Shown: positions 10,233-38,589, counted from the first letter of the stretch. The stretch is DNA of 64,000 nucleotides from an uncultured bacterium (GCA_963716205.1 OY970290.1:108906-172905), one strand, 5' to 3'. Numbers and translations are program-made. Notes: generated by a model not told the origin, from the letters alone.

Positions 10233-13645
<3,413 letters not shown>

Positions 13646-13747
13646 AATTTAAAAAGTCACGTTCGCATGTTTTAACCTGTTATGTGAAATGAATTCAAAA
13701 AATATTTTTTTGAGTGATTTTCACAGTAGTTTGAGTTGAATTTTTTG

Positions 13748-13858
13748 TTCTGGTGCTTTGTCGCGGGTGTTACACCTGATCTCATTCCGAACTCAGCAGT
13801 TAAGCCCCGTTGAGGCGATGATACTCTCTCTGAAGGGGAAAGTAGCTAGGCGCCGGAA
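13748..13858 (+). rRNA. rrf: 5S ribosomal RNA
   Basis: CCTGATCTCATTCCGAACTCAGCAGTTAAGCCCCGTTGAGGCGATGATACTC matches the conserved 5S helix II-III/loop C region. It lies about 100 nt after the 23S 3' end. Confidence 0.8.
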
Positions 13859-13940: not shown

Positions 13941-14702
13941 ATGTCCTGGGCAAGCCGAAGAAAAACAACATATATACTTATTTTTTTCATCATCGTAATC
14001 GTTATTATCGCTGCCATCGCGTTTTTCTTTTTCTACAAACCAGCATCGTGTTTTGACGGCATTCAAAACGAAGGCGAGACAGGGATTGATTGCGGCGGGC
14101 CATGCGCCATGCTTTGCCGCGCAAATTATGCCAATCCGACTGTGCTGTGGACGCAGTGGTCAAAAGTGACGAGCTCTGGCACTTACAATCTTTTGGCGTA
14201 CGCTGAGAATCCAAACATCGGTGTCGGCGCTACAAATGTTCCGTATGAATTTAAAATCTACGATACCAACAATATTTTGCTTGATGATGAAAAAGGCACT
14301 GCTTCGATCCCGGCAAATAATAATTTCGTCGTCTTCGTGCCGGGCATCAATATTTTTGATAAAATTCCGGCGCGGATTGATTTTGCATTTTCAAATGCGA
14401 TTATCTGGCAAAAAATTCCGGATCTTGAACAGGGGATTAATCTGGTTTCAAGCACGCTGACAAACGAAGATACCGCGCCGAAATTATTCGCTACATTGCA
14501 AAATACCACCGTAAGCACTATAAATAATATTCAGTCCGTGGCTATTATCTATGATCAAAACAACAATGCAATCGCCTTTTCAAAAACCGTGACGGATTCA
14601 ATCGGTCCGAATGCAAGCGCCAATATCGTTTTTACCTGGCCAGAGCCATTTTCCGCGCCGGTCTACAAGACCGATATTATTTCCCAGGTTTTATCCCAAT
14701 AA
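13941..14702 (+). CDS. membrane-anchored Cys-containing extracytoplasmic protein of unknown function, immediately upstream of the SEDS gene
   Basis: The track ORF 13758..14702 overlaps the 5S rRNA. The first ATG after the terminator (13941) gives MSWASRRKTTYILIFFIIVIVIIAAIAFFFFYK (transmembrane anchor), then CFDGIQNEGETGIDCGGPCAMLC. It ends 6 nt before the rodA/ftsW-like gene. Confidence 0.5.
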   Translation: MSWASRRKTTYILIFFIIVIVIIAAIAFFFFYKPASCFDGIQNEGETGIDCGGPCAMLCRANYANPTVLWTQWSKVTSSGTYNLLAYAENPNIGVGATNVPYEFKIYDTNNILLDDEKGTASIPANNNFVVFVPGINIFDKIPARIDFAFSNAIIWQKIPDLEQGINLVSSTLTNEDTAPKLFATLQNTTVSTINNIQSVAIIYDQNNNAIAFSKTVTDSIGPNASANIVFTWPEPFSAPVYKTDIISQVLSQ

Positions 14703-14708
14703 CATATT

Positions 14709-15872
14709 ATGCTGCCGGAAAAAAGAAACACTCCTCGGTCCGGATTTTTTTCAATGTTTTCCGATGTCAATGTCGACTGGATCATGCTCGGTTCTGTCCT
14801 TGTCATTTCTTTTTTCGGCCTCTTGACGATGACATCATTTAACGGAGACAATACTTATATTGTCAAACAAATTTTGTGGATTTTGATTTCCGTATTCGTT
14901 TTTTTCTATTTGAGCACTCTTGATTATGGCTTTTTGAAAAAAACCAAAGTGGTCACCTGGATTTTTGTCATTTCGATTATTTTACTGGTGACACTTTTTG
15001 CCGTCGGTCATATCGCGAAAGGTGCGGAGAAATGGTTTGCCATCGGCGGGCTTTCATTTCAACCGTCCGATCCCATCAAGCTCGGTCTCATTATTATTCT
15101 GGCGAAATATTTTTCCCGGCGACATGTGGAAATCGCAAATATCCGGCATATTCTGGTGTCGGGTTTTTATGCACTTGTCATTTGCGCATTGATTTTCTTG
15201 CAGCCGGATTTCGGAAGCGCGCTTATCGTATTTTTTATCTGGCTCGGAATGATTTTGGTTTCCGGTGTTTCCAAAAAACATTTGTTTGCCGTATTTTTCC
15301 TCGGACTCACGGCTTTTTCCGTATTGTGGTTTTACGGATTGAGGGATTATCAAAAACAGCGCATTATTAATTTTGTCCATCCGCTTTCTGATATCCAAGG
15401 GTCCGGATACAATGCGTATCAAGCGACGATCGCCATCGGTTCCGGCGAGCTGCTCGGCAAGGGAATCGGCTACGGCACTCAATCGCGCCTGAAATTTTTG
15501 CCGGAATATCGCACTGATTTTATTTTTGCTGCTTTCGCCGAAGAATGGGGGCTTGTCGGCGTCGGAATCTTATTTTTATTTTTCGGCATTTTGATATGGA
15601 GAATATTGAGGAATGCGTATTACGGAGCGACAAATTTTGAAATTCTTTTCGGACTCGGTCTTGCAATCATGTTTATGAGTCATTTCATCGTAAATGTCGG
15701 AATGTGCCTCGGACTTATGCCGGTAACGGGAATTAATTTTCCTTTTATGAGCTACGGCGGGACCAATCTTCTCGCCTCATTTACCGGTCTCGGAATACTT
15801 ATGGGAATGAGCAGATACCGACGAAGTGCGCATAAAGAAGCGACAGAAAAAGAATTTTTAGGACTCGAATAA
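14709..15872 (+). CDS. SEDS-family peptidoglycan glycosyltransferase (RodA/FtsW)
   Basis: 387-aa polytopic membrane protein with an FtsW/RodA/SpoVE-family core (PDFGSALIVFFIWLGMI..., GYGTQSRLKFLPEYRTDFIFAAFAEEWG). The true start may lie downstream of 14709. Confidence 0.8.
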   Translation: MLPEKRNTPRSGFFSMFSDVNVDWIMLGSVLVISFFGLLTMTSFNGDNTYIVKQILWILISVFVFFYLSTLDYGFLKKTKVVTWIFVISIILLVTLFAVGHIAKGAEKWFAIGGLSFQPSDPIKLGLIIILAKYFSRRHVEIANIRHILVSGFYALVICALIFLQPDFGSALIVFFIWLGMILVSGVSKKHLFAVFFLGLTAFSVLWFYGLRDYQKQRIINFVHPLSDIQGSGYNAYQATIAIGSGELLGKGIGYGTQSRLKFLPEYRTDFIFAAFAEEWGLVGVGILFLFFGILIWRILRNAYYGATNFEILFGLGLAIMFMSHFIVNVGMCLGLMPVTGINFPFMSYGGTNLLASFTGLGILMGMSRYRRSAHKEATEKEFLGLE

Positions 15873-15911
15873 CACTCTTGATAATTTGTTTCTGATATTT
15901 TACAATATACA

Positions 15912-18900
15912 GTGATGAGACTGCAAAAAACATACAGATATACTGCATTTTCGCTGTTCGCTTTGTTTGTTTTTTTGCTTGCTTCCCGCTATGTTTCCGC
16001 TACTATTTATAATCCCGGTGAGACGCTCAATCCTGATTGCATAATGGGATCGAGTAATTGCGGAGTGGATCTTTTTTCTTCATTTATTCCTTATACCGGA
16101 GCGACAACGACCATCGATCTCAACAGTCAATTACTTACCAATGTCAGTGCTTTGAATGTTACAAGTACGACAACAATCGGTCAATCGGTCCTTATAACTT
16201 CTGGAAATCCTGATGGAATCGGTACCTCCTCTCAAGATACCGGAAGTAATTTACTTGCAGAAGGAAGTATTTATGATTTTCATATTTACTCTTATAGAAT
16301 GGTGAATGGTGTACAAGTTTTTTCTCAAAACTACACGGACATTCCATTTACTGATGATAATCTTGGCGGAACTTATAGTATTGGATTGACGTGGGACACG
16401 GTGCCGGGAGTGAGCGGATATAGAGTGGTAATCGTTCGAGATGACGAGGATGCTTATTACAGCGATCATTCAATAGATACTACAAATGATACGATTGAAT
16501 ATGATGGACTTACCGATGTTAATCCGACCAGTAATGTAAGCCCGTCTTCTTATGTGTATTCTTCCGGCGGTTTTTTACAAGTTGATGGTTCAGGCAGCAT
16601 AGCAGGCAATGTAACCATCAATAATGATCTTACGAGCGCGACAACAAAACCGGCGACCGCTCTGACCGTTTCAGGGACAATTTTTAATGATATTGGCAAT
16701 TCATCCCAGATTTCTCAGATCGCCACCACATCTGTTGGAAATGATCCGCAAGGAATTGCTATTTCCGGCAAATATTTATATGTAACGAATCAAAATGATA
16801 ACACCTTGTCTGTTGTTAATATTTCGGATCCTCATCATCCAATACAGATTGCCACAACTTCTGTTCCCAATGGTCCCAATCATATTGTTGTTTCAGGTAA
16901 TTACTTATATATAGGTCTTGATGGAGGTTCCGGTCACATTCCCACGTGTACCTCCGGAGAAGATTGTGTAGCTATTATAGATGTTTCAAATCATTTTTAC
17001 CCAATAATAACCGCTATTGTTAATGTCGGGGAGGGTCCATACGATATCGCTATTTCTGGAAAATATCTTTATGCGGTTAATAATGTTGGCCACGCCATCT
17101 CTATAACAGATATTTCAAATCCTTATAATCCTTTTAACATCGCCTCCTTATCTGTTGGAAACACACCAAACGGTATTGTTATATCCAGTCACTATGCTTA
17201 TATAACTGACACAAATAACAATGATATTTATACTGTTGATATTTCAAATCCGTATCATCCAGTGCAAATTGCCACAACCTCGGTTGGAAATAATCCTTTA
17301 GGTGTTGCGATTTCAGCTCCATATCTTTATGTAGTTAATGAAAGTGACAATGATATTTCTATTGTTGATATTTCAAATCCGTATCATCCAGTGCAAATTG
17401 CCACCACTTCCACGTTATTTGGTACTTCAATTGGCGGTGATCCTGAAAATATTGTTGTCTCTGGCCGATATGCTTATGTAACGAATCCAATCGGTAATAC
17501 TTTCTCGGTTATAGATGTTTCGAATCCTTATTATCCGATACCGATTGCTGATACTATAGTCGGAAATTCTCCAAATAATCTTGCTGTTTCAGGAAAATAT
17601 GGCTATACAGTTAATACAAATGACGGTACCATTTCAGTCATTGATCTTGGAGGTATTGATACAGGGAATCTTTCAGCCGGTGCACTTGAAGCAGGAAATA
17701 TAAATGTCGACAATAATATTGATGTTGCGGGTTCCGTAAATATCGGCACTGCGCTTTCTGTTGGAGCTGGAGGAATTCTTTCCAACGGAGATCTTTCGGT
17801 AAACGGCACAACCACCACTTCAGGCTTGAAGATTTCAAATCTTTCAAACACTTTCCTTGCAGTTGACGCAGATGGAAATGTTATAGCTGCTTCATCATCG
17901 TTTTCACGTGTTTTTATTTACGCTTCAAGTTTGCCAGGTATTCATGACAATTCAAACCTAACAACTGGTGGTGGTACGGACGATACTGCGGTTTTGCAAT
18001 CAGCCATTAATAATATTTCTTCATACGGCGGCGGAACACTCGTTATTGACGGTGTTTTTCTTGTTTCTGGTTTGGTCGTTCCAAGCAATATCACGATTGA
18101 AGGCCTCGGATGGAATACGGGCTTCTATCGATCAAACTATGCCGATGTTCCGATTATCAGAAATGCAGACCCGTCGACCACTACAGTTATGGACAAAAAC
18201 ATTCAGATGATCAACTTTGCCGTAAACGCCAACGGAGGTAATCAAAATGGTTGCCCGCTTTTGACTGAGGGTGATTACTTCGTCCAAGGTATTGCCATGT
18301 ATGGCGTAGATAATGTAACCCTCGATAATTTGCATTTCATTAATACCAACGAAGTCGTCAGCAATTTCACTGGTGCTATAGCGGGTTGTAGTGCAGATAA
18401 CGACTCAAATTATAATTACGCGTTTTTCTTTAGTAACTGGTCTAATATTACCGTTGAAAACAGTTATATTGAACAAGGTATGCTTTCCGGAAATGATGGA
18501 ATACATTTTATCGGCTCAGGAAATAACGCAATCATCAAAAATGTAAGAGGTTACAGCGGTGATGATTTCATAGCTTTTAATAGCAGTGATTATCATGACT
18601 ATTCAAGTCCTAATTCCCCTAGCTGGGTTATTGAGGATGGTCCACAATCAAACATTTTGGTTGATGGAGTTAACCTTCAGAATTCAACAGAAGGAATTTC
18701 TTTCTTGAGTGGTTACGATATCTCAAATGTTCGTGTCGAGAATATTACAGGTACAACGACTGCAGAAACCATACATTTCTGGAACTGGTATGGCGGTAGC
18801 GGTTCAGTCAAAGATATTATTTTTGACAATGTGAATGCTGTGAGCACAGGAGATTATGTTTTTAAGATGGAAGTCGGCTCGAGAATTGATAACATGCAAA

Positions 18901-21122
18901 TTTCAAATTCTAGATGGGAAAACCAAATAGCGAACGGTCCATCATGGATAGGTGTTGATGGGACTGTTATTAATGATTTGCAAATAAACAATATGATCGT
19001 TGATGAGCCAACAACCGGAACGGATGCAGAGTCTTTAATTGGTTTAGTTGGCAGCAGTGCCTCAATCGGATCACTTGCAATTAACGGTCTTGATTGGGAA
19101 CGACCATCGGGTTCGAATCCAGCGGGTTACTATATTCTATCCGGAAATGGAGCAATTAACAGCACATCTATTGCTGATATTAACATTCCGCTTTTGAGCG
19201 GAATTGCCGAAAGTACTTTAACTATATCTACAAATCAAACAACTATGGGTGGCAGTTTGGTTGTTCCTGGATCTGTTTCAATTGGTAACAATGCACTTTT
19301 TCTCCAAGCTGGAAGTATTATGTCAACAGGAACAATGGCAATTGATGCGACGAATATTGGTATCAATACAGCTAATCCCGCAAATACACTTGATGTGAAC
19401 GGTACATTCGATGTCTCTATTCCTTTAGTAACTGAAACAGGGGCAATGGTCAGTACAAACGGCACTGATACCGTCCTTACTTATAATGGTTCTGGAACAT
19501 TTGATCCGGGAGCGTATGTAAGCGAGGTACAAGTTTTAGTTGTCGGAGGAGGGGGCGGAGGAGGAGCAAAAAGAGCGGGCGGCGGCGGCGGCGGCGGAGT
19601 TATTTATGATGCAACACATTCAGTTACAAATAATATATATACAATTACAGTTGGGGCTGGCGGAGCCAGAGACACAACAGAAAATGGCGGCTCAAATGGA
19701 TCAAATTCCATATTTGATAATTTAACCGCTATTGGTGGTGGTGGAGGAGGAGGAGATAATTCTAATGATGGTCATAACGGTGGCTCAGGCGGCGGCGGTG
19801 GTGCGGATAATGGCATTGGTACCGGAGGTTCTGGCACTATTGGTCAAGGAAACAATGGGGGCAGTGGTAATACAGCTGGAGAAGGTGGCGGAGGTGGTGG
19901 TGGTGCAGGCGGGGTTGGGGTGGCCAGTACAACTTACGGCATGGGTGGAAATGGCGGAAACGGCATTTTAAACTCAATCACAGGAACATCTACTTATTAT
20001 GGAGGTGGCGGAGGTGGCGGAGGTTTCTCAAGTGGTTATGCTGGAGGTATTGGAGGAGAAGGCGGCGGCGGAGCCGGTTCAGAGTCAAGCGGAGTTTCTG
20101 GTTTGAATGGAACAGATGGCTTAGGTGGTGGAGGTGGCGGAGGAAATGATTCAGCTGATGGAGGGACTGGCGGCAGGGGTGTGGTAATTATTTCATATCC
20201 AACAAATGATACTGCGATCAAAGCACTTACTATTATGAATTCTGGCAACATCGGCATCGGCACCACCACACCATCAGCCACTCTAACCATCGTCGGCAAT
20301 CCTGCAAGTACAACATTAAGACTTGCGAATTTCGGCGCAGGAACTCTCATGACCGACAGTCTTGGAAACGTCTACGACAATTCCGATGAACGATTAAAGA
20401 ATATTATCGGTACCTCAACCATCGGTCTTAACGAACTCGAAGGATTAACTCCCATCAACTACTATTGGAATGCCACCTCCGGTCTTGATATGACAGATGA
20501 AAACACCGGCTTTTCCGCACAGAATGTAGAGCAATATATTCCAAACGCAGTCGCCACCGATACACGAGGCTACTTAACTCTTCAAGATCGTCCGATCATT
20601 GCGGCACTCGTCAATGCGGTGAAAGAAATCGGATCATTCATCAGTACTATTGGAAATGGTCTTGCTCACCTGACCGGTATTGCTATCGGCACTTCCGACA
20701 AACCGGAGGGGATTACGATGTATGACGAGTCTACGGGACAGCCGTATTGCGTTGTCATTAATAATGGAATTTTGGTTAATAATCCGGGTGAGTGTACGAC
20801 AAAAAATTCATCGGTAGGCACGTCAGTAAGCACGACTGAAAGTATCACTACTACTTCAACGGATGAAATACCGGTTGAAAATTCTTCATCAAGTTCTACT
20901 CCGGCGACAAACACTCCCGATATCGCGAGTTCAACTGAATCCGCCTCATCCACCCAATCCATAACGGGCACTGATGCTTCCACAACTCCACAAGTATCAA
21001 CAAGTACTTCTGCTCTTGCGACAACAACACTCGAAGATATCATCGCTACGACAACTGAAAACACGGCTTCGTCGTCCGATGAGACTGATGCAACGAATAC
21101 GGCAACAAGCACCGGATCGTAA
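15912..21122 (+). CDS. giant secreted fibre-like protein 1 (1736 aa)
   Basis: N-terminal hydrophobic signal/anchor plus a conserved IYNPGETLNPDC.MGSSNCG motif. About 8 repeats of ISNPYHPVQIATTSVGN.P.G.A.S..Y.YV (LVIVD/beta-propeller-like, nt about 16660-17620). A PF12708-like signature DDTAVLQSAINNISSYGGGTLVIDGVFLVSGLVVPSNITIEG (nt about 17980-19060). A poly-Gly region (nt about 19540-20170). A C-terminal module with [12 protein letters not shown]...[10 protein letters not shown]...[15 protein letters not shown]...[18 protein letters not shown] that matches the endosialidase / tail-fibre intramolecular chaperone (S74) pattern. A Ser/Thr-rich tail. Confidence 0.85.
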   Translation: MMRLQKTYRYTAFSLFALFVFLLASRYVSATIYNPGETLNPDCIMGSSNCGVDLFSSFIPYTGATTTIDLNSQLLTNVSALNVTSTTTIGQSVLITSGNPDGIGTSSQDTGSNLLAEGSIYDFHIYSYRMVNGVQVFSQNYTDIPFTDDNLGGTYSIGLTWDTVPGVSGYRVVIVRDDEDAYYSDHSIDTTNDTIEYDGLTDVNPTSNVSPSSYVYSSGGFLQVDGSGSIAGNVTINNDLTSATTKPATALTVSGTIFNDIGNSSQISQIATTSVGNDPQGIAISGKYLYVTNQNDNTLSVVNISDPHHPIQIATTSVPNGPNHIVVSGNYLYIGLDGGSGHIPTCTSGEDCVAIIDVSNHFYPIITAIVNVGEGPYDIAISGKYLYAVNNVGHAISITDISNPYNPFNIASLSVGNTPNGIVISSHYAYITDTNNNDIYTVDISNPYHPVQIATTSVGNNPLGVAISAPYLYVVNESDNDISIVDISNPYHPVQIATTSTLFGTSIGGDPENIVVSGRYAYVTNPIGNTFSVIDVSNPYYPIPIADTIVGNSPNNLAVSGKYGYTVNTNDGTISVIDLGGIDTGNLSAGALEAGNINVDNNIDVAGSVNIGTALSVGAGGILSNGDLSVNGTTTTSGLKISNLSNTFLAVDADGNVIAASSSFSRVFIYASSLPGIHDNSNLTTGGGTDDTAVLQSAINNISSYGGGTLVIDGVFLVSGLVVPSNITIEGLGWNTGFYRSNYADVPIIRNADPSTTTVMDKNIQMINFAVNANGGNQNGCPLLTEGDYFVQGIAMYGVDNVTLDNLHFINTNEVVSNFTGAIAGCSADNDSNYNYAFFFSNWSNITVENSYIEQGMLSGNDGIHFIGSGNNAIIKNVRGYSGDDFIAFNSSDYHDYSSPNSPSWVIEDGPQSNILVDGVNLQNSTEGISFLSGYDISNVRVENITGTTTAETIHFWNWYGGSGSVKDIIFDNVNAVSTGDYVFKMEVGSRIDNMQISNSRWENQIANGPSWIGVDGTVINDLQINNMIVDEPTTGTDAESLIGLVGSSASIGSLAINGLDWERPSGSNPAGYYILSGNGAINSTSIADINIPLLSGIAESTLTISTNQTTMGGSLVVPGSVSIGNNALFLQAGSIMSTGTMAIDATNIGINTANPANTLDVNGTFDVSIPLVTETGAMVSTNGTDTVLTYNGSGTFDPGAYVSEVQVLVVGGGGGGGAKRAGGGGGGGVIYDATHSVTNNIYTITVGAGGARDTTENGGSNGSNSIFDNLTAIGGGGGGGDNSNDGHNGGSGGGGGADNGIGTGGSGTIGQGNNGGSGNTAGEGGGGGGGAGGVGVASTTYGMGGNGGNGILNSITGTSTYYGGGGGGGGFSSGYAGGIGGEGGGGAGSESSGVSGLNGTDGLGGGGGGGNDSADGGTGGRGVVIISYPTNDTAIKALTIMNSGNIGIGTTTPSATLTIVGNPASTTLRLANFGAGTLMTDSLGNVYDNSDERLKNIIGTSTIGLNELEGLTPINYYWNATSGLDMTDENTGFSAQNVEQYIPNAVATDTRGYLTLQDRPIIAALVNAVKEIGSFISTIGNGLAHLTGIAIGTSDKPEGITMYDESTGQPYCVVINNGILVNNPGECTTKNSSVGTSVSTTESITTTSTDEIPVENSSSSSTPATNTPDIASSTESASSTQSITGTDASTTPQVSTSTSALATTTLEDIIATTTENTASSSDETDATNTATSTGS
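17805..17895 (+). repeat. connector module (A/L)[10 protein letters not shown](K/N)[13 protein letters not shown](D/N)GNV(I/V)A, copy 1 of 3
   Basis: The same 30-35-aa module recurs at 23440..23555 and 24610..24725 inside giant protein 2. DNA identity is partial; codon usage differs. Confidence 0.6.
20251..20723 (+). repeat. 473-nt block encoding the intramolecular-chaperone module, copy A
   Basis: Almost identical to 25851..26323. The core (about 20385..20608 versus 25985..26208) is identical as far as I can read. The flanks differ only by synonymous third-position changes. Confidence 0.85.
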
Positions 21123-21178
21123 TTGATAATCTGATTTTTCTGTTCTATAATACATGTGAGTATTGCCAAGATTTTCAC

Positions 21179-24100
21179 ATGAACAGCAAACAAAAATTTC
21201 TTCAAACAAAGAGATTACGATACGCACTCTATATAGTGTTTTCGCTTTTATTTGTATTTTCTCTTCAAAGAGCTTTTGCTGATATTTACGCTCCGGGAGC
21301 GACGCTTAATCCGGACTGCACCATGGGTTCGGCAAATTGCGGGATAGATTTCAGTCTTTCTTCAAGTTCAGAACCTCTTTTTCTCGCAGCTTCTTCATCC
21401 CTTCTTTCTACCACGTCTGCTTCCGCACTGTATGTTCCATATACCGGAGCGAATCAAAACATTGATATTGGAACAAATAATTTGCTTGGAGACAATGTTC
21501 TTACTCTTCAATCTCCAAACGGATTTGCGTTTTCAGGAAACGCGACCGATAGTTTGGCGTTTGATTTGAATAACAGTGAAGTATTTTCGACTTTTAATAA
21601 TAGCAGTACAAACGCGAACGGCACGATTCAAGTTAATCCGGGTGACTTTGAAGCAAATTTTAACGATGGTTCAGGGAACAATGGAAATTTAGAGGTTTCA
21701 AATACCGGTGCCAATATAGATTTTTCTGATGGGAGCAATGGCAACGGAGGTTTCAGTTTAAATTCAGACGGAATGGATTATGGTTTTGGCAGTAGCGGCG
21801 GCGGAGGGGGTTTTGAAGTAAGCCCGGCATATTTTAGTTTTGATTCCGGTGACAGCAACAGTGATGATGTTGCTATTAACGTAGACAGCAGTGAGAGCTA
21901 CTCTTCATTTAATAATGGCAACGGAGCAAGTGGAAATCTTTTTGTTAATCCGGGTGACTTTGAGGCAAATTTTAACGATGGTTCAGGAAATTCCGGCAGT
22001 TTGAATGCCGCAAACAGCGAATTTGATTATCATGCCCAGACAAGCAACGGCATCGTTTCTGGTTTTGGAGACAATCAATCCAACTTTTTTATTGAAGACG
22101 CGAGCGGTACTAATAATTTCTTCATCGATCCGAATACGAGCAAAGGAAATACCATTCTCTCATCCGCGGGGAATATTGATTTTACTTCAAATGTAAGTAT
22201 TGGATCAATGATCAATACTAGCTCGAATGATAGCGTAAGCACCAGTTCAATATTAGGAATTCTCACTCCATCGGGGGCGTATACCGCTTTCGGAGATTCA
22301 ATCACGAATGGTTCGGGAGGATCACAACAATCTAATGCATACGTCAATTTGATATCCACAGATTTGGGAGTTACCAATCTGGTCAATTATGGATATCCGG
22401 GAGATTTTGCCTGCAATGTGGCGACGGAACAAGTTTTTCCGAATGAAAATCCGAATAATACTTCCAATCCCATTTATACTTTGATGGTAGGCACGAATGA
22501 AGCTATCAATAAAGGTGCGGGATCATACGAATCAGTATATGAAGCATGCGATCAAGCATCGCTTGCATGGCTTGCTGTTCCATCAGAGAATAAAGTATTC
22601 GGTACAAGCAGTTCAGTCGTACTTGCCGGATCATGGACTAATAGCAATACCTATACAACCGGCAGAGGCACATACCCAACCGTGGGAATCCAATCATCAA
22701 CCAACGGATCGGTGGCAACATTTCCGATCACGACGACCGGCGGACCAATTTATATTTGGTATCGTATTATTGATGGCAATGGCGGAACATTCACATACCA
22801 GCTTGATGGTGGATCGGCGGTATCAGAAAATGCATTTACCAATCCGGAAGTGGATGATAATAACAATGGCAATCAAGGCATTGCGCTTGCGAGAATCACA
22901 GGAGTTTCAGCCGGTTCCCATACTATTGCAATCACGGTTACTTCAGCCACCAATTCCGGCAATCTCGTGCCTATCATTGCGGTCGGTACTGCGCCGAGTA
23001 GTATTTCTTCCGGTTCACCGAAAGTTTTTCCTAGCGGCTTGATATATTATCAGGATGACGAGCTTTCAGCCTCAACTGCGGCATATAATGCTGACGCGCT
23101 TGCCGATGCAGATTTGCTTGCGGACGACGGTCTTCCCATTTATCCGGTCAATGTAAGAAATTATTTTACTATCGCATATGATGTTTCCGGAATATTCGGC
23201 GGACCGCATCCGAATGATCTCGGACACTCTCTCATACGAGATGCTTTTGAAGCGGAGATGCTGCAAGTCGCTGAGGATCTATCGACATCAAGTGAAAACA
23301 GTCTTTCTCTTCCATCCGTTGCATTTCAAGTATCTACCACAAGCAGTGCGGATGGTGTTGCCGATTTTATTTCATCTTCCGGACAGTCCGCACTCTATAT
23401 TGGAGCCGATGGAAATATCAGTATCGGCACCACCACTCCAACCACAGCGCTTTCTGTCATCGGCACGACAACGACAAGCGGTTTGAATATTTCAAATCTT
23501 TCAAACACTTTTCTCGCCGTTGATGCAAATGGAAATGTTGTTGCGACGACGAGTCCATCAGGCGGATCATCCCAATGGGCAACAACAAGTGTTGGTGTTG
23601 GTTATGATGTCCCGGGCATTTATTATAATATCGGCAATGTCGGCATCGGCACAACAAATCCGAACGATGAGCTTGTTGTTACCGGAACATCGACAACAGA
23701 TACCGTTGCATATTTTGGCGGTAATGCTGATATAGCTGGCAATGCTGTGATCGGTAATACAAACACTCTTGCTCAAGGTTTGTTTTTACTTGTCGGTCAC
23801 AGATACGCTCCTAATCTTCAGCAGATAAACATTGAGTCAAGCGATGACGGAATAAATTTCTCCGATTTTGAGCAAAATCCTATTTGGTCAAATCCTGACA
23901 ATGATTCTCCGGCCATTGCTGCTGCCCGAGACCCGTCCATTGTCTATTATCACAATATTTATTATATGGTTTATAGCGCAATACCGTATAATGGAGGCTT
24001 TGATTCGAATACTGTTTTTGGGCTGGCGACTTCTTCTGATTTGAAAAATTGGAATTTCGTCGGGGATATTTCCGTTACCTCAATCGGGACGGTGTATTGG

Positions 24101-26731
24101 ACATGGGCGCCTAGTTTGCTTGTTGATGCAAGTGGAAATTTGCACGTTTATGTTTCAGTTGCTCCTGATGGCAGCGATTCTACGTTCAGTATTTATGAAA
24201 TGCACCCGACAAATCCAAGTGCGACAACATGGTCTGTTCCAGCTCTCATGCTTGGAACAAATAAAATTGATGCGGATACAGTTTATAACAACGGAACATA
24301 TTATCTTTGGTATAAGAATGAAACGACAAAATATATCGAATATGCAACTTCTTCCTCGCCAACCGGCCCATTCACGGTGGCAGAGACAGGTAATTGGGCC
24401 GGGTGGGGAACAGGTTTTGAAGCTCCATGTCCGGTCCAGATCAGCGCCAATGATTGGAGAATTTATCTTGATGAATATCAGAACACGTCATTTATTCATT
24501 ACAGTGATTCATACGATAATTTTGCAACATGGACTGCTCCATTGCCGATATCCACGCCAATTCCTGATTTGGACAGTGTAAGCGTCATACGATTACGTGG
24601 TATTACCCCAAGCGCCGCGCTTTCTGTCATTGGTACAACCACGACATCAGGTCTCAATATTTCAAATCTTGCGAACGGTTTTCTTGCCGTTGATGCAAAT
24701 GGAAATGTTGTTGCGACGACATCAAGCGGTTCTCAATGGACAACAAATGGCTCCAATATTTATTATACGACTGGTAATGTCAGCATTGGCACCTCAACTC
24801 CCGGTTCCGCTCTTAGTGTGGATGGCGCTATTGATGCAACATCAATATTCAGTTCCAGCATAGGACTTTTGGGAAGTTCAATGCAACCGCTCACCGCAGA
24901 TATTATTGTCGTTGGCGGTGGTGGAGCAGGCAGTTCGGGCGGTGGCGGTGGCGGTGGTTTTATTGCCACCTCAACGGAGATTTCAGATGATCCGTATGTG
25001 GTAACGGTTGGAAACGGCGGAAGTGTTACCCATGGAAATGGTTATGATTCTATTTTTGGATCATTTGATGCGGTGGGAGGAGGAGCGGGAGCGGGTATTA
25101 ACTCGGGGAGTGGAGCTAATGGCGGTTCGGGTGGTGGCGGTGGTTCTACTTGCGGCGGTGGCCCAGTATCCGCTGGTGGTTTGGGAACAACAGGTCAGGG
25201 AAATAATGGTGGAAGTGCAGCTGCCGGAAATTGCATTGTGCCTTATACATCAGGCGGCGGCGGCGGAGCTGGAGCGGCGGGTCAAAATTCAACAGCAACC
25301 ACGAACGGAAACGGTGGAATCGGAACTACAAGTTCGATTACGGGAACCGTTACTTATTATTCAGGCGGCGGCGGCAGCGGAGATTATTACGGAACAGAAC
25401 CGTTCGGAACAGGCGGTCTTGGCGGCGGCGGCAATGGCGGAAATCCGGCAACGGCAGGAACGGCAAACACCGGCGGCGGCGGCGGCGGAACTATCAACGG
25501 CGGCACATCAGGCAATGGAGGTTCCGGTGTCGTTATAATAAAATACTTAACTTCCGCAGATGGCGATGGAACCGGAGGTATAATCACTCATGTCGGCGGT
25601 TACACCATTCATACATTTACATCAAGCGGAATATTCACACCTCCGCCCCCAAGTCCGGTAATATACAATATTACCTTAGACAACAATTTGTTCAGTTTTG
25701 AAAACGGAATCTCAGCACCGAATCTTGCTGTCGGCACAACATCGTCACCGATCACCCAATTCGATGTTTATGGTTCAAGTACAAATGATCTTGCCAACTT
25801 TGCTTCCTCTTCGGGACAATCCATTCTTTATATTACTTCGACCGGTAAAGTCGGCATCGGCACCACCACACCATCAGCTACTCTAACTATCGTCGGCAAT
25901 CCCGCAAGTACAACATTAAGACTTGCCAATTTCGGCGCAGGAACTCTCATGACCGACAGTCTTGGAAATGTCTATGATAATTCTGATGAACGATTAAAGA
26001 ATATTATCGGTACCTCAACCATCGGTCTTAACGAACTCGAAGGATTAACTCCCATCAACTACTATTGGAATGCCACCTCCGGTCTTGATATGACAGATGA
26101 AAACACCGGCTTTTCCGCACAGAATGTAGAGCAATATATTCCAAACGCAGTCGCCACCGATACACGAGGCTACTTAACTCTTCAAGATCGTCCGATCATT
26201 GCGGCACTTGTCAATGCGGTGAAAGAAATCGGATCGTTCATCAGTACTATCACGGACGGTATTGCACATCTCACCGGTATTGCTATCGGCACTTCCGACA
26301 AACCGGAAGGGATTACGATGTATAGTCCGAGTGGAAATGCATTTTGTATACAAGTTTCAGATACCGGACTGATTCAAAGTTCATCGGGAGAATGCAGCAA
26401 TGCAACCTCGACAATTTCTACCGCTTCAGTTGTTTCTTCAATCAGTCAAGCTTCTGATTCTTCAAATACATTAGCTACATCCACAGCTTCAACATCGGAT
26501 AATGTATTGCAGTCATCATCAACATCGGATGATGCAAGTTCTTCCGTTGCAACAACTTCCGATCAAGATACACCGGCAACTTCAACAAATACTACACTAA
26601 CTTCACCTATTGCAACAAGCACATCGGATCAAGCGACAACAACTTCCGATACTGATATAATCGCAACAACGTCTGAAAGCGCGACTTCGCCATCTGATAC
26701 CACGGATGCCGCGACAAGCACAGGTCAGTAA
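21179..26731 (+). CDS. giant secreted fibre-like protein 2 (1850 aa)
   Basis: Same N-terminal motif ([22 protein letters not shown]). SGNH hydrolase blocks: [14 protein letters not shown] and NDLGH (nt about 22250-23250). A GH43-like five-bladed propeller: [23 protein letters not shown] (nt about 23820-24570). A poly-Gly region (about 24900-25560). An S74-like C-terminal chaperone module nearly identical to that of protein 1, followed by a Ser/Thr-rich tail. Confidence 0.85.
25851..26323 (+). repeat. 473-nt block encoding the intramolecular-chaperone module, copy B
   Basis: See copy A. The offset between the copies is exactly 5600 nt. Confidence 0.85.
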
Positions 26732-26739
26732 TTATTTTT

Positions 26740-28530
26740 TTGAATATGCGCATTACATTTTATAAATATTATTTTCTTTTTTTACTCTTCTTTTTTTTCA
26801 TTCCCGCAATTTCTTTTGCCAATACCGGTACAATCGGAAGCACAACAAATGCTGCATGGAGCAATGAAATCGGCTGGATAAATTTTGCGCCAACAAACGG
26901 GGGAGTAGTTGTGAACGATTCATCTTTGACTGGTTCGGCATGGTCTCAAGATTACGGCTGGATTAATTTTGCCCCGACGAACGGCGGCGTGACAAATGAC
27001 GGACAAGGGAATCTCGGAGGAACCGCATGGGGGGATAATGTTGGATGGATTAGTTTTTCTGGAGTGACAATCAATACGACAACAGGAAAATTTTCAGGAC
27101 AGGCTACGGGCACAATTATTGGAACACTGACATTTGATTGTACCAATTGCGATGTTGCAACTGATTGGAGACCGACAACGGTTACTCCACCACCGTCATC
27201 TGGTGGAGGCGGAGGTGGAGGCGGAGCGCCGGGAGCTGGCGGAACAGGTGGCGGCAGTTCTCCATCTCCGACACCTACCCCTTCTCCAACCCCAACACCT
27301 TCTCCAACTCCATCTCCGACACCTACCCCTGAACCTACACCAACCCCAACTCCTGTTCCATCTCCAACACCCTCGCCAACCCCATCCCCCACACCAACAC
27401 CAACGCCAACCCCAACTTCCGGACCAAGTATAACTTCTGTTATTAGCGGATCAATTTCATCCGTCGGTTCATTTATTACTTCAGCCGCAAATGGATTCAT
27501 TACCAATTTAAATACTATTTATAACAACGCTCCGGCCTCGATAAAAAATACCGTTACTGTTACGAAACAATTTGTCCAGACAAAAACCGGTTCAGCTATA
27601 ACAAAAACAATTTCAACAATCGGTGTTGTGACGGGCATTTCACTTCCCGTTGCTGTTGCAGCAACTTCATTTTCAGATTTATGGCTTATTTTTGTAAGAA
27701 TGTTCGGATTATTCTTTGAAATATTTGGTATTCGCAAAAAATCCCGTCCATGGGGCACGGTATATGATTCCATCACCAAGCGTCCGCTTGACCCCGTTCT
27801 TGTCACTCTCATCAATGTTGAAACAGATAAGCAGATCACTTCAGCCATTACGGATATCGATGGGCGATACGGATTTCTCGTTTCTCCCGGCACATATCGG
27901 ATTGAAGCCAGGAAAACCGATTACACATCTCCATCGCTCAAGATGAAAGGCAGATCATTTGATGAAGTCTATAATGATCTGTATTTTGGAGAAAATATAA
28001 CTGTTGTAAATGAGGAAGAAACAATTACCAAAAATATTCCTATGGATTCAATATCGTTCAACTGGAATGAATTTGCCAAGACAAAAATGGATGTGAATAA
28101 ATTTATTAAAGGCAGAGACATTACCTGGGCCCGCATTTCCAAATTCCTTTTTGTCATCGGAGCTCTCGTTGCACTCATTGCCGTTCTCATTGTTCCAGAA
28201 CCGTATAATTTTATTATCGCCGGATTCTACATTCTCGCATATATATTGAACTATGTGGTATTTACGACGAAGAAAGCCGGCACTCTGATAGAAAAATCCA
28301 CCAATTTGCCCCTCTCATTTGCCATTATCAATATTTTTCGAGAAGGTGAAACGGCTCCGTTCACTAAGAAAATCGCTGACAAGTTTGGCGATTATTACGC
28401 GCTGGTTCCCAAAGGCAGATATTATTTGAAAGTTGAAAAGAAAAATGACGATGAGACCTATACAGCTCTTTTCCAGACATCACTTTTTGATGTGAAAAAT
28501 GGAGTGATCAATGTCAATATTACGGGATAA
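26740..28530 (+). CDS. polytopic surface protein: signal peptide, three Trp-rich repeats, a Pro/Thr/Ser linker, transmembrane segments and a carboxypeptidase-regulatory-like beta-sandwich
   Basis: Repeats [36 protein letters not shown] and [30 protein letters not shown] linker. Several hydrophobic helices. The segment [57 protein letters not shown] resembles CarboxypepD_reg. Confidence 0.6.
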
Positions 28531-28543
28531 TACAAAGACTATT

Positions 28544-29026
28544 TTACGGGGTCACATCGTAGCAGAGATCTGGATTTGAAGGTCCAATCGAACCGGAAAC
28601 ACAATTATCCGCTTGCCCGTTGAATCCGACATTAATATGTTTTGCGCTGGTAAGAACTGCATTTGCCGTACTTGAGAGCGCTATGCCCAAATGATACGAA
28701 GCGCAATCTGAAGAACAAACAATAGTATTTGTTATGTCGGTGCTCTGATATTTTATATTGGGATTTATCGACGGGATGTATTTTGGCACAAGGGCGGTGA
28801 TTAAATCAGTATAAGAACTTCCCGTCGGATAATATCCGTTGTCGGTAAAATACAACTGTAATGCTTTTTGGACCTGCTGCAAATCTTCTATTTTTGCGGA
28901 GTCATTTCCTTTATTTGTTGCGGAGCTTAACATAAAAAGCGCGACCGCGGAAAGGACGGCGATGATACCAATCACAATGAGCAATTCTATCAAAGTGAAT
29001 CCGTTTTTTTGTTTTTGATGGAACAT
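28544..29026 (-). CDS. type IV pilin / pseudopilin (class III signal peptide)
   Basis: The ATG at 29026 gives MFHQKQKNGFTLIELLIVIGIIAVLSAVALFML, the prepilin peptidase motif G|FTLIE followed by a hydrophobic helix. The track ORF extends upstream to 29092. Confidence 0.75.
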   Translation of the reverse strand: MFHQKQKNGFTLIELLIVIGIIAVLSAVALFMLSSATNKGNDSAKIEDLQQVQKALQLYFTDNGYYPTGSSYTDLITALVPKYIPSINPNIKYQSTDITNTIVCSSDCASYHLGIALSSTANAVLTSAKHINVGFNGQADNCVSGSIGPSNPDLCYDVTP

Positions 29027-29060
29027 GAATATTTTGTTACATTGATATGCCCGTATTCTA

Positions 29061-30209
29061 TCACATTGAATACATCGCGATAGTCTTTTCAATCATAGTT
29101 TTCAGACTGAATTCGAAGTCGATTTTTTTCTTCAGTTTTTTGCCGAAAATTTCTATTTTTTTGCGGTTTTCCAAAACGTATTCTATCGCCCGCTGTATTT
29201 CTTCTGAACTTTTCGATCGTATGAGGATTCCTGTTTCGTTATTTTCTACAATTTCCGGTATGCCGCCGACATTACTGGCAATGATAGGCAGTTCGGCGGC
29301 GCCGGCTTCAAGAAGTGCATAGGGAAGCGCTTCAGTCACGGAAGTTAGGGTGAACATATCAAAAGCTTTCAGATACATTGAAGCAGATTCGATTCTTCCG
29401 AGTAAGAATATTTTTTGTTCGACTTTCAATCTGCGGATCAATTGTTCCAAATTTTTCTTTTCCTCGCCGTCTCCAATGACGGTGAAAACAACATTCGGTA
29501 TTTTTGCAATCGCCTTCATGGCGAAGTTCAAACCTTTTGTTTTATGAAGCTCGGATATCGTGCCGATCCAGACCGGATTTTTTGAAAATATTTCCGCGGC
29601 GCTTGGATTTTCGCTAAGTATTTTTTGCGACAAGAACTCCCGGGCCAAAGTTTTCTCTTCAAAATCAATGGGTCGCAAGCCATTCCGTATGACAATCATT
29701 TTTTTATTCCATGGTTTGCCGATTTGATCATATGTTATTTTTGATACGGCGACCGTCTGGTGGGCAAGGAGGATAGTAAGAATATGGAAAAATCTCGCAA
29801 ATATTTTTTGCCACCACGGTCTATCTTCATTAAAAGCCCAGCCGTGCCCAGTGAAAATTATTTTTTTAATACCAACGATCCTTCCGACAAACGCTCCCAT
29901 ACCGCCCATTTTGGAGCTGTTGAGATGGATGATATCCGGTTTTTCCTTTTGAAAAATATGGAAGAGCTCAAAAAATAATCCGAATTCTTTCAGTATGTTG
30001 ATATTCCGTTGTGAATTTTTCAGTGGAATTGTTTTAACTCCGGCTTCATCAAGCTTTTTTTTCAGCTCGCTGCTGCCGCCGAGAAGGACAGAGACCTCAA
30101 ACTGTTCTCTCGGAATATTCGTGGCAATGTCATAGACATATTTTTGCGCTCCACCCCAATTTGATTTGGTGATGCAGATGAAAACCTTCTTTTTCGACTG
30201 TTCGGTCAT
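29061..30209 (-). CDS. glycosyltransferase family 4 (GT-B)
   Basis: EALPYALLEAGAAELPIIASNVGGIPEIV is the E-x7-E GT4 motif. Typical length of 382 aa. Confidence 0.75.
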   Translation of the reverse strand: MTEQSKKKVFICITKSNWGGAQKYVYDIATNIPREQFEVSVLLGGSSELKKKLDEAGVKTIPLKNSQRNINILKEFGLFFELFHIFQKEKPDIIHLNSSKMGGMGAFVGRIVGIKKIIFTGHGWAFNEDRPWWQKIFARFFHILTILLAHQTVAVSKITYDQIGKPWNKKMIVIRNGLRPIDFEEKTLAREFLSQKILSENPSAAEIFSKNPVWIGTISELHKTKGLNFAMKAIAKIPNVVFTVIGDGEEKKNLEQLIRRLKVEQKIFLLGRIESASMYLKAFDMFTLTSVTEALPYALLEAGAAELPIIASNVGGIPEIVENNETGILIRSKSSEEIQRAIEYVLENRKKIEIFGKKLKKKIDFEFSLKTMIEKTIAMYSM

Positions 30210-30257
30210 GAGCTTCCATTATATAAAAAAAATGCTACAATTTCTAGCACATAATTT

Positions 30258-31610
30258 ATGCGTATTTTCAACAAAAAAGAGCCAATACTCCTTTTTCTGG
30301 GGGATATCATCATCTTTGCCGTTTCTTTAATGCTTGCTCTTTTGATACGCGGAGGGGATGATCTTTTTTGGAAGACATATCAGAATTATGTTCTGCCGTT
30401 TGCCATTATATTTCTCCTGTGGGCGCTGGTATTTTTCATTGCCGGATTGTATGACAAATATACAACGATTCTGAAAGACAAGATTTCCTCGACCATACTG
30501 AATGCCGAGCTCGTGAACAGTGCTCTTGCCATCGCATTCTTTTATTTGATTCCGTACTTCGGTATTACTCCGAAAACTTTGCTCTTTATTGATTTGGTCA
30601 TTACATTCATTCTTATCTATGGATGGAGGATTTACAGTCATCAGCTTTTCGGACTGAAAAGAAAAGAGCCGGCGATCATTGTCGGCTCGGGCGATGATAT
30701 GAAAGAGCTTGAAAAGGAAGTCAATGACAATCCACGATCCGAGTTGCAATTCGTTTCATCCATCGATCTCGACAAAATATCGGGAATTGATTTTGTCGAT
30801 GAGATTGCAGACAGGATATACGCCGAGCATATCGGCATCATTGTCATCGATCTGAAAGACGAGCGCGTGGAGCCGATCCTGCCGCATTTGTATAATCTGA
30901 TTTTTTCCGGTGTGCGGTTCATTGATATGTATAAAGTCTACGAGGATGTTTTTGATCGCGAGCCGCTTTCGCTTGTCCGCTACAATTGGTTTCTGGAAAA
31001 TCTTTCATTCTCGCCAAAATTTACCTATGATACACTCAAACGTTTTGCGGATATTATATTCGGACTTGTCGGAGGAATCGTTTCTCTCGTTTTTTATCCG
31101 TTTGTTATTGTCCTGCTTTTATGCGACGAAGGACATGGTATTTTCAGCATTCAGGAGAGAATCGGCAAGGACAATAAGATCATAAAAATGTACAAATTCC
31201 GCACGATGAAAATCGCTAATGACGCGGGCAAGTGGAATACCGGCGAGAAAAATTACGTGACGAAGATCGGTAAATTTTTGAGAAAGACTCGTCTTGATGA
31301 ATTGCCCCAGCTTTGGAATCTGCTCTTCGGTGATGTTTCCCTTATCGGTCCACGACCGGAATTTCCCGATGCAGTGAAAACGTATGAAGAGGAAATTCCG
31401 TATTATGGTATTCGACACCTCATCAAACCGGGTCTTTCCGGCTGGGCAATATTGCATATAGCCAAGGATGCTCATCACGGTATCGGCATCAGCGAAACAA
31501 AAGAAAAACTTTCTTATGATTTGTATTATGTAAAAAATCGTTCATTTATGCTTGATGTTGTGATTACTTTGAAGACAATCAAGAAATTATTGTCGATTGC
31601 AGGAGAATAA
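30258..31610 (+). CDS. polyprenyl-phosphate sugar-phosphate transferase (WbaP/bacterial sugar transferase family)
   Basis: N-terminal transmembrane helices. The C-terminal domain contains KFRTM...LDELPQLWNLLFGDVSLIGPRPE, the bacterial sugar transferase signature. Confidence 0.8.
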   Translation: MRIFNKKEPILLFLGDIIIFAVSLMLALLIRGGDDLFWKTYQNYVLPFAIIFLLWALVFFIAGLYDKYTTILKDKISSTILNAELVNSALAIAFFYLIPYFGITPKTLLFIDLVITFILIYGWRIYSHQLFGLKRKEPAIIVGSGDDMKELEKEVNDNPRSELQFVSSIDLDKISGIDFVDEIADRIYAEHIGIIVIDLKDERVEPILPHLYNLIFSGVRFIDMYKVYEDVFDREPLSLVRYNWFLENLSFSPKFTYDTLKRFADIIFGLVGGIVSLVFYPFVIVLLLCDEGHGIFSIQERIGKDNKIIKMYKFRTMKIANDAGKWNTGEKNYVTKIGKFLRKTRLDELPQLWNLLFGDVSLIGPRPEFPDAVKTYEEEIPYYGIRHLIKPGLSGWAILHIAKDAHHGIGISETKEKLSYDLYYVKNRSFMLDVVITLKTIKKLLSIAGE

Positions 31611-31656
31611 AAATCCTGTTGCAAAATATCGAAAAATAGTTATACTAAAACGCATT

Positions 31657-33045: not shown

Positions 33046-33046
33046 C

Positions 33047-34103: not shown

Positions 34104-34394
34104 AGCAAAGCTGTCTTTTAATAAGGATACGCCATTTTTTTTCACTAAAAAACGGCGATATCCAACGTTGTTTTCTTAAATAACATTTAGGAGGCAGTGT
34201 TCATTTACAACCGAATAGTACAAGATTTAAAGATACATCATTTTTTACATGAGAATGATGTATGAGATAGTGCGAGTCTAGTCTCAAACTCTAAAATCGT
34301 TTCAAGTGAATTAAATAAATGAATTATAGAAATATTATTTTTTATTTTGTTCCGTTTCCGAAACAAATAATTCTTCAAAAGATTATTTTATTTT

Positions 34395-35900: not shown

Positions 35901-36099
35901 TTCAAATCGAACACGCTATCGTCTGGAAGTTTCTAGATAGATGCTGATCGGTCGGTTTTCAATGCCTCAATTGAGCATTGAAAAGGTTGTATGTTCCTTC
36001 ATAACATACTATGCAGTGGGAAAGACTACACAAAGTCCGCCTTCGGGCGGACTAGGAAACGGAACAAAATAAAGAATGATATTTAGTATACAAAAAACA

Positions 36100-38580: not shown

Positions 38581-38589
38581 ACTTTTATA

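Follow-up and report, generated by a model that had tools for sequence, protein, structure and literature searches.

In a 64,000-nucleotide (nt) window of DNA from an uncultured bacterium (the window being the whole stretch analysed), the locus between positions 13941 and 31610 was studied. It encodes, in order, a membrane protein with four Cys residues (protein A), the SEDS peptidoglycan polymerase RodA, two giant fibre proteins, a polytopic membrane protein (E) with Trp-containing GWINF repeats, a type IV pilin, a GT4 glycosyltransferase and a priming sugar transferase. The locus is a composite of a housekeeping envelope backbone and a movable three-gene cassette consisting of the two fibres and E. 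We consider it probable, by a narrow margin, that this cassette provides Sec-exported, trimeric, self-processing, glycan-active fibres held at the cell surface by E via docking to its GWINF domain. All eight genes had been listed in an original prediction and were found in the same order and within the same limits. The cell-envelope character of the neighbourhood proposed there is real, its order being conserved, but its interpretation as one system did not hold, as the run of genes resolves into a backbone and a variable slot for fibres and E.

The host is an ultrasmall bacterium of the Candidate Phyla Radiation (CPR), of the Paceibacteria/Minisyncoccia type. The named relatives of the locus proteins belong to Paceibacterota, Patescibacteria, Nomurabacteria or Minisyncoccia, and the remaining contents of the window (the tail of a ribosomal-protein operon, two VirD4/TraG-like ATPases, a low-GC insert, a Wzx/Wzy-type glycan cluster and SecA) fit such an organism.

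A conserved backbone with a variable slot

Related loci, designated here by L numbers, were reached via homologues of E and of protein A, and their rRNA genes were confirmed with Rfam. The backbone 23S–5S–A–RodA–slot–pilin–GT4–transferase–(epimerase)–SecD–SecF–16S, with the pilin and GT4 on the minus strand, was recovered in nine related genomes (partially in some of them, owing to contig ends), which is more than expected by chance; upstream of the 23S gene it continues with Adk, Map, a beta-lactamase-like protein, a TraG-like protein and NDK. The slot lies between RodA and the pilin, and is occupied by giants in four of the nine backbones and empty in five. In the window it holds the two fibres and E. 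In L001 (with L237, from the same sample) it holds at least three giants and E, followed by pilin, GT4, transferase, SecDF and 16S; in L085, a 1185-amino acid (aa) protein and a fibre with the same N-terminal motif, LVIVD and Peptidase_S74 domains as described below, after which the contig ends; and in L037, an 862-aa protein, E, a 907-aa S74 fibre and a TPR protein ahead of pilin, GT4 and transferase. The TPR protein of L037 (768 aa) was considered as a homologue of the Wzy_C-TPR protein encoded elsewhere in the window, and no homology is claimed from the match obtained (E=0.014 only). Among the empty slots, the pilin is kept in L084 and L086, and no pilin was seen in L009, L238 and L236.

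The genome of L084 further showed that the fibres and E can be located elsewhere. L084 and L002 lie on one 606-kb contig, where a 2688-aa fibre and an 804-aa E are flanked by MFS and RNase J genes at a distance of about 380 kb from the backbone, with no pilin nearby. The same MFS/RNase J site in L239 carries a frameshifted fibre with the N-terminal motif and S74 domain, followed by a short protein made of GWINF, stalk and transmembrane (TM) segment. Since the slot is empty in five of the nine backbones and the fibre and E genes are relocated in one genome, the run from A to the transferase is not a single co-inherited operon. No repeat or att-like sequence marking an insertion was found at the RodA–fibre 1 and E–pilin junctions when these were read against the empty site of L084.

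The PilA-like pilin (28544-29026, minus strand, 160 aa) starts with the ATG at 29026, a start also chosen by an independent gene call. Its leader MFHQKQKNG is followed by FTLIELLIVIGIIAVL (FTLIE...), and Gly-1, Phe+1, Glu+5 and the hydrophobic helix are all present. It matched Pfam N_methyl (PF07963) with 34.2 bits against a cut-off of 21.2 and TIGR02532 with 32.7 bits, above the cut-off of 16.3, so that with its class III leader the gene is a type IV pilin gene as originally called; its score with the GspG equivalog (40 bits) was far under the cut-off of 88.85. The convergent orientation noted originally applies to E, whose stop codon lies 13 nt away, but the pilin is co-directional with GT4 and lies 34 nt downstream of it. 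No PilB, PilC, PilD or PilM genes and no type II secretion system (T2SS/Gsp) genes were detected in the 64-kb window with Pfam and NCBIfam profiles. Only 3 of the 82 E loci (L001, L065 and L067) had an open reading frame (ORF) with a pilin-like class III signal at a distance of up to about 1 kb from E, and in L084 and L086 the pilin stands beside GT4 with neither fibre nor E in the slot. As judged from gene order, the pilin belongs to the conserved backbone and travels with GT4 rather than with the fibres. A small ORF of 61-67 aa was also observed directly downstream of GT4 on the same strand in L009 (2828-3019, minus), L001 (11484-11687, minus) and L086 (12961-13146, minus), the only one read (L009) having a C-terminal TM segment; it precedes the pilin in L001 and L086, stands alone in L009 and is missing from the window, where the pilin directly follows GT4.

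Saccharibacteria use type IV pili for host attachment, and CPR bacteria have been reported to contact their hosts by surface filaments (PMC12206443). The window locus resembles that system in encoding a bona fide class III signal pilin, but differs from it in that no pilus machinery lies near the pilin, which is linked to GT4, and in that the fibres are Sec substrates unrelated to pilins.

The fibres, the E protein and their linkage

Fibre 1 (15912-21122, 1736 aa) and fibre 2 (21179-26731, 1850 aa) are encoded on the plus strand, as are all cassette features given below. In both, a signal peptide (15912-16001 and 21179-21283) is directly followed by the Cys-loop motif YxPGxTLNPDCx6C, hereafter the N-motif, which reads YNPGETLNPDCIMGSSNC in fibre 1 (16008-16061) and occupies 21287-21340 in fibre 2; AxA-type signal peptides immediately precede it in about 30 homologues. 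Fibre 1 continues with an LVIVD beta-propeller (about 16719-17681; Pfam LVIVD, 88.7 bits), a pectin-lyase-like beta-helix (about 17949-19301; PDB 8ikx, E=0.002), a Gly_rich_2 region (19488-20198; Pfam, 82.9 bits), a Peptidase_S74 chaperone domain starting at Ser1491 (20382-20831; PF13884, 35.0 bits, match aa 1491-1547) and a Ser/Thr-rich tail (20832-21119). Fibre 2 comprises a SGNH/GDSL-like hydrolase domain (about 22271-23278; Lipase_GDSL_2, 24.5 bits, below cut-off) with intact GDSITNG and DLGH motifs (GDS, DxxH), a GH43/GH32-like five-bladed propeller (about 23726-24598; Glyco_hydro_32N, 29.2 bits; PDB match of the fibre: 7zei, 1.2e-5), a Gly_rich_2 region (24893-25546; Pfam, 58.2 bits), a Peptidase_S74 domain from Ser1602 (25982-26428; PF13884, 34.7 bits, match aa 1602-1658) and a Ser/Thr-rich tail (26429-26728). 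Judging by these weak assignments, the heads look like enzymes or binding domains. The description of the giants as adhesion-type was thus half right, as they also have enzyme-like heads and a phage-type self-cleaving chaperone domain.

Both S74 matches exceeded the PF13884 gathering cut-off of 22 bits, and both fibres carry the S-x4-K cleavage-site pair SDERLK, in which Ser and Lys were invariant in an alignment of 14 diverse homologues; the pair matches the Ser-Lys dyad known from endosialidase-type intramolecular chaperones. By score and motif, both fibres are members of the S74 family. The two genes share a near-identical block (20251-20723 and 25851-26323; 95.6% identity over 473 nt by blastn) that spans a GIGTTTP stretch, the SDERLK site and the Peptidase_S74 domain. 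At the protein level, the C-terminal regions are 66% identical over 309 aa, with little similarity elsewhere except in the N-motif and short connector modules. Ser and Thr make up 53-54% of the last 110 residues of each fibre. Neither fibre has an LPXTG motif or a C-terminal TM segment, both ending in acidic, Ser/Thr-rich sequence, and LPXTG is absent from E as well, so the proteins are not of the sortase-anchored type.

Two further short elements were observed in the fibres. The string (I/V)PY(T/S)GA, found in both (16086-16103 and 21434-21451) and in close homologues 9-36 residues past the Cys-loop, resembles LPXTG, yet is N-terminal, and is the sole LPXTG-like string present. The second element, PEGITMYD..TG.PYC..I.NG (or IEMKD..TGD.YC), follows the S74 domain (20703-20780 and 26303-26380) and is also seen in L029, L037, L050, L052 and L068; it is kept in many fibres, is not described in Pfam and is predicted to be part of the self-cleavage fragment.

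E (26740-28530), the probable fibre anchor, starts 9-15 nt past the stop codon of fibre 2. Its signal peptide (26740-26820) is followed by the GWINF Trp-repeat beta-domain (26821-27174; AlphaFold2 (AF2) pLDDT about 85-93), which contains the three AW...GWI(N/S)F repeats originally noted (26854-26886, 26938-26970 and 27025-27057; aa 39-49, 67-77 and 96-106), and by a Gly/Pro/Thr stalk (27181-27444) with an 86-residue Gly/Pro/Thr/Ser-rich stretch. The protein is polytopic, as had been stated, with TM1 at 27670-27723 and a TM hairpin at 28099-28260; instead of the single carboxypeptidase-regulatory-like domain predicted, it has two seven-strand transthyretin-like beta-sandwiches of this kind (27751-28050 and 28279-28527), both of which would be cytoplasmic according to the positive-inside rule. 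In contrast to the wall- or membrane-anchored adhesins of Gram-positive bacteria (LPXTG/sortase-type microbial surface components recognizing adhesive matrix molecules, with CnaB/transthyretin-like stalks), neither the fibres nor E have an LPXTG motif and no sortase gene lies nearby; the anchoring module is here a membrane domain of three helices, with transthyretin-like domains for which a cytoplasmic location is predicted.

More than 650 homologues of E were found, almost all in Paceibacteria-type genomes and often several per genome. The family order is signal peptide, GWINF domain, variable stalk or immunoglobulin (Ig)-like inserts, TM segment with basic residues, transthyretin-like domain, TM hairpin and second transthyretin-like domain. 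Homologues devoid of GWINF carry ectodomains of 1,000-2,000 residues with Laminin_G_3, NHL, DUF285, Big_2 or GLUG domains; because these large adhesin-like ectodomains take the place of GWINF, the C-terminal module of E behaves as a general membrane anchor. PG_binding_1 is present in some paralogues of E; high expression of extracellular proteins with peptidoglycan-binding domains has been reported for Paceibacteria that parasitise methanogens (PMC10936435). The GWINF domain alone was detected in about 3,170 cluster representatives (E<=1e-3), most of them proteins of 240-400 aa composed of a signal peptide, GWINF, a Ser/Thr/Pro stalk and a C-terminal TM helix, and gave no sequence match in Pfam, NCBIfam or PDB. 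Such short GWINF proteins also adjoin fibres in L088, L122, L038 and L239. A different branch of the E family has a gene for a Peptidase_M50 protein (site-2 protease-like, about 215 aa) directly upstream of E (L022, 9338-9985; L049, 9345-9992; and about a dozen others), often with a fibre gene downstream; no such gene is present in the window.

The linkage between fibres and E was assessed in 79 genome loci chosen only for the presence of an E relative together with L001-L003 from E-homologue contexts, giving 80 loci from different species genomes after removal of duplicates. S74-region and N-motif profiles were run against the ORFs called in these loci. A fibre gene on the same strand within 1 kb, upstream or downstream, accompanied 29 of 58 GWINF-bearing E genes and none of 22 GWINF-less ones (Fisher p=1e-5). 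Within 1 kb of E, fibre genes occurred at a density of 2.0 per 10 kb, which fell to <=0.2 per 10 kb farther out, and where the fibre lies upstream (the window, L001, L002, L007, L018, L025 and L026) the intergenic gap is 3-27 nt. For the reciprocal comparison, 69 metagenome loci were selected solely on an S74 match, and the complete S74 proteins in them were counted; as a close S74 alignment was used for the scan, this set is biased towards relatives of the window S74 domain. An E or GWINF gene was present within 3 kb of five of the eight S74 proteins with the N-motif vs one of the 29 without it (p=7e-4). Since it is the motif, not the S74 domain, that predicts a neighbouring GWINF gene, N-motif and GWINF are specifically associated. 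Some of the motif-less S74 proteins are probably phage fibres, given that at least one motif-less locus is also in IMG/VR (L139 is the same as L164). What emerges is a two-gene module, an N-motif S74 fibre with a GWINF anchor, more specific than the whole-locus system originally proposed.

The proposed function of the cassette and its alternatives

The fibres resemble phage tail fibres. Matches were obtained with phrog_2295 for both fibres (2e-57 and 1e-43) and with phrog_18920, annotated 'tail protein', for fibre 2 (6e-27), and S74 cores on IMG/VR viral contigs are up to 54% identical. As in endosialidase-type tail fibres and tailspikes, the fibres have a C-terminal S74 domain with Ser-x4-Lys as well as Gly-rich and GIGTxxP segments, an N-terminal attachment end that is conserved with a variable distal part, and interchangeable heads that are predicted here to be glycan-active (beta-helix, SGNH esterase, five-bladed propeller), and the near-identical chaperone block of the two paralogues recalls recombining phage cassettes. 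Unlike phage tail fibres, however, they are encoded on a cellular chromosome with no other virion genes, begin with a Sec signal peptide and a Cys-loop motif that is specific to cells, have the membrane protein E as partner in place of a baseplate or adaptor, and extend by about 100 Ser/Thr-rich residues past the chaperone domain. The N-motif and E were absent from all 80 IMG/VR loci with S74 proteins (1.08 Mb), a search for the fibres in 50,697 deposited phage genomes returned one weak match only, Pfam and PHROG scans revealed no phage structural families in the locus, and the slot holds no capsid, terminase, tail-tube or integrase genes.

In the mechanism proposed, the giants would be exported by Sec, and loss of the signal peptide would leave the conserved disulfide-loop motif exposed at the N-terminus. 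Like the tail fibres and tailspikes of phages, the giants would probably fold into trimers with the aid of the C-terminal Peptidase_S74 intramolecular chaperone, which would then cut itself off at Ser1491 or Ser1602 (SDERLK, Ser-Lys dyad). The heads, an LVIVD propeller with a pectin-lyase-like beta-helix in fibre 1 and a SGNH esterase with a GH43/32-like propeller in fibre 2, may bind glycans on the surface of a host cell or substrate, trim them and have a role in host contact. The fibres themselves lack an anchor in membrane or wall, and E would supply one, with its GWINF domain, raised over three TM helices by a Pro/Thr stalk, docking the fibre N-motif. The cassette would have been inserted in a hot spot of the envelope backbone, the RodA/pilin junction. 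A broader proposal, which we put forward tentatively as possible rather than probable, is that of an undescribed two-part Paceibacteria apparatus in which a membrane-stalk GWINF protein (long E or the short stalk-TM form) acts as a universal socket for swappable self-processing fibres; these would be recognized via YxPGETL[DN]PxCx6-7C, their heads would be swapped like phage receptor-binding cassettes, and the cassettes would land in hot spots.

Several observations weigh against fibre docking by E. The independence of the loci is overstated in the Fisher tests, as they are phylogenetically related and the counts carry no phylogenetic correction; one in two GWINF-bearing E genes stands without a fibre beside it; and in L093 three tandem fibre genes, two of them with the N-motif, have no E within 7 kb. 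With about 3,200 protein clusters containing it, GWINF may serve more generally as a lectin or adhesin domain at the surface. Adjacency of fibre and E shows joint function, not contact, and binding between GWINF and the N-motif is a prediction. The enzyme assignments are weak (Lipase_GDSL_2 below cut-off, pectin-lyase match at E=0.002), and the topology of E is derived from hydropathy and the positive-inside rule, the AF2 model having a mean pLDDT of 64 and being poor outside the domains. In a promoter and terminator scan, the number of sites overall was no greater than chance, leaving the operon structure putative; the best matches lie in the intergenic gaps that precede fibre 1, fibre 2 and GT4, positions that are suggestive only.

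The main rival, which we hold to be somewhat unlikely, does without contact between the proteins: the fibres would be released exo-enzymes (glycan esterase, glycosidase, lyase) serving to feed or prepare the cell, and E an independent glycan-binding adhesin or sensor. It would account for the enzyme-like heads, for the E genes that lack an adjacent fibre and for the very wide occurrence of GWINF on stalked membrane proteins, many of them probably with no fibre partner, and Trp-rich repeats are typical of carbohydrate-binding modules. It leaves unexplained why a hypervariable fibre family keeps a short N-motif right after the signal-peptide cleavage site and why this motif, rather than the S74 domain, predicts the adjoining GWINF gene; moreover, S74-type proteins are normally structural trimers with their N-termini attached to a particle, as established for phage endosialidase-type tailspikes. 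Glycosylation of the pilin, the E stalk and the fibre Ser/Thr tails by GT4, the transferase and the Wzx/Wzy_C cluster would be compatible with docking by E and is, in our estimate, unlikely. The pilin is directly downstream of GT4 in five genomes, the tails and the stretch in the E stalk are rich in the residues concerned, the window encodes a Wzx flippase and a Wzy_C/O-antigen-ligase-like TPR protein (56.5-60.6 kb), and known pilin O-oligosaccharyltransferases carry Wzy_C. These arguments are purely circumstantial, however; the tails lie past the predicted self-cleavage site and would be discarded, and GT4 and the transferase persist with neither pilin nor slot fibres in L009 and L238, which a role in a cell-wall glycopolymer fits equally well.

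The reading in which the run from A to the transferase forms one surface system, with the pilin, as suggested in the original prediction, being a dedicated pseudopilin, here one assembling or exporting the fibres, is favoured by the contiguity of the genes and the proximity of the convergent pilin to the E stop. The adjacency of E and pilin recurs in the closest relative, L001, and the pilin is also missing in two of the three empty-slot backbones with intact gene calls (L009 and L238). Against this stand L084 and L086, which keep the pilin beside GT4 with an empty slot, the scarcity of pilins near E, the classical Sec signal peptides of the fibres, the lack of pilus or T2SS genes in the window and the low GspG score. 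A dedicated pseudopilin is unsupported because the fibre and E pair can lie about 380 kb away while the pilin stays by GT4, and we regard this reading as very improbable. Slightly less probable still is a reading of the giants as prophage remnants, in which tail-fibre genes acquired from a phage would serve no purpose in the cell. The Peptidase_S74 and Gly_rich_2 domains, the strong PHROG matches and the viral S74 cores would agree with such a source, but both ORFs are intact and have signal peptides, and the pairing of fibre and anchor recurs in dozens of CPR species. A prophage origin was rejected on the absence of virion genes from the slot and of the N-motif and E from the 80 viral loci.

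Backbone genes, flanking features and implications

Protein A (13941-14702, plus strand, 253 aa) is bitopic and in the backbone is always directly upstream of RodA. It consists of an N-terminal TM helix (aa 3-31), a four-Cys knot (CFDG..DCGGPC..LC, aa 37-59) and two Ig-like beta-sandwiches; its only four Cys (C37, C51, C55 and C59), which agree with the original description, are invariant across 37 homologues. A longer ORF from 13758 overlaps the 5S rRNA gene, hence 13941 is the correct start. Pfam and NCBIfam searches gave no family assignment for protein A, which is neither a penicillin-binding protein nor MreC-like. RodA (14709-15872, plus strand), originally called a SEDS gene, matched Pfam PF01098 (FTSW_RODA_SPOVE) with 315 bits and passed the NCBIfam equivalog TIGR02210 (rodA_shape; 347.0 vs a cut-off of 336.7 bits), the FtsW model giving 283 bits, below its cut-off of 337.5. 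The gap between A and RodA is a few nt in most relatives and 141 nt in L238. The tight coupling of RodA to an upstream bitopic membrane protein resembles the mrd-type pairs of cell-wall elongation, but the partner here has a four-Cys knot and two Ig-like domains and is not a penicillin-binding protein.

On the other side of the slot, GT4 (29061-30209, minus strand; Glycos_transf_1 114.8 and Glyco_transf_4 64.3 bits) is divergent from the priming transferase and is kept in every backbone whose contig extends that far. The transferase (30258-31610, plus strand) is a large polyprenyl-phosphate glycosyl-phosphotransferase with WbaP/CpsE-like architecture, having four to five N-terminal TM segments and a Bac_transf domain (177.6 bits); both sugar transferases of the original prediction are therefore present. 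It scored slightly under the cut-off with TIGR03025 (EPS_sugtrans; 286.9 vs 295.55 bits) and 154.8 bits with the WbaP model (cut-off 403). Beyond 31610 the locus runs on into SecD and SecF (31597-33982), encoded on the plus strand at 31597-33045 and 33047-33982 (Pfam SecDF_P1_head and SecD_SecF_C), and SecDF also follows the transferase in L001, L009, L084, L086, L236 and L238.

The locus fills the gap between unlinked rRNA genes in permuted order, all on the plus strand, with 23S (10296-13646; Rfam LSU, 2287 bits) and 5S (13749-13858; Rfam 5S, 68.8 bits) about 20 kb upstream of 16S (34388-35907; Rfam SSU, 1289.6 bits) and protein genes between them. This split arrangement is kept in L084 and L086 and partly in L001, L009, L037 and L085. 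With Rfam, the 23S–5S flank before A–RodA was also found in L009, L037, L084, L085 and L086, and the 16S right flank in L001, L084 and L086. The 23S gene measures 3351 nt against 2925 nt for the model, and an ORF was noted in it at 12778-13101; about 0.4-0.55 kb near its 3' end (13093-13646) has no counterpart in the 23S gene of L086 and is common to L085. Other insertions in the 23S region of relatives are a group I intron (L037) and a LAGLIDADG ORF between 23S and 5S (L084).

Elsewhere in the window, the Wzx/Wzy-type glycan cluster (48896-60633) encodes a GT4, five GT2 and two methyltransferases, together with the Wzx flippase (56474-57772), a hexapeptide acetyltransferase (57795-58442) and the Wzy_C/O-antigen-ligase-like TPR protein (58504-60633). 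A priming transferase is lacking from the cluster, so this step may be provided by the Bac_transf gene at 30258. The two VirD4/TraG-like coupling-protein ATPases are encoded at 5545-8322 and 46957-48750 (DUF87, TrwB_AAD_bind, TraG-D_C); the first looks like a core CPR gene and not a plasmid remnant, since it is conserved, with DUF8128, upstream of NDK–23S in relatives. The low-GC insert (31-33%, about 8-9 kb, 36886-45960) lies between tRNA-Leu(cag) (36853-36935) and a TP_methylase gene (45986) and is missing from L001, the closest relative, in which the corresponding gap measures about 770 nt. It has a large serine recombinase at its left end (36886-38580, minus strand), followed by seven ORFs with no Pfam match, and is probably an integrated mobile element, although no att repeats were found for the insert at 36.9-46 kb. 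A LOOT RNA (Rfam RF03000, 88 bits) lies within it at 41194-41318, its 3' end overlapping the start of an ORF at 41261-41836.

CPR bacteria, or Patescibacteria, make up a large share of bacterial diversity, and their cultivated members live attached to other cells. To our knowledge there is almost no molecular account of how they recognize and hold their hosts outside the type IV pili of Saccharibacteria, and no description of S74 fibres or of the GWINF/E family in Patescibacteria was found in the literature, an absence of evidence only, as coverage was incomplete. Because the locus is a housekeeping backbone with a mobile insert, adjacency alone is no ground for assigning a function to neighbours such as the pilin. 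If the fibres and E do work together as proposed, a fibre-plus-socket system derived from phage receptor-binding parts would offer testable candidate determinants of host range in Paceibacteria. The two-part apparatus, if real, would set the host or substrate specificity of these episymbionts, and would explain a widespread family with no known function (about 3,200 clusters with a GWINF domain, more than 650 proteins of the E type).

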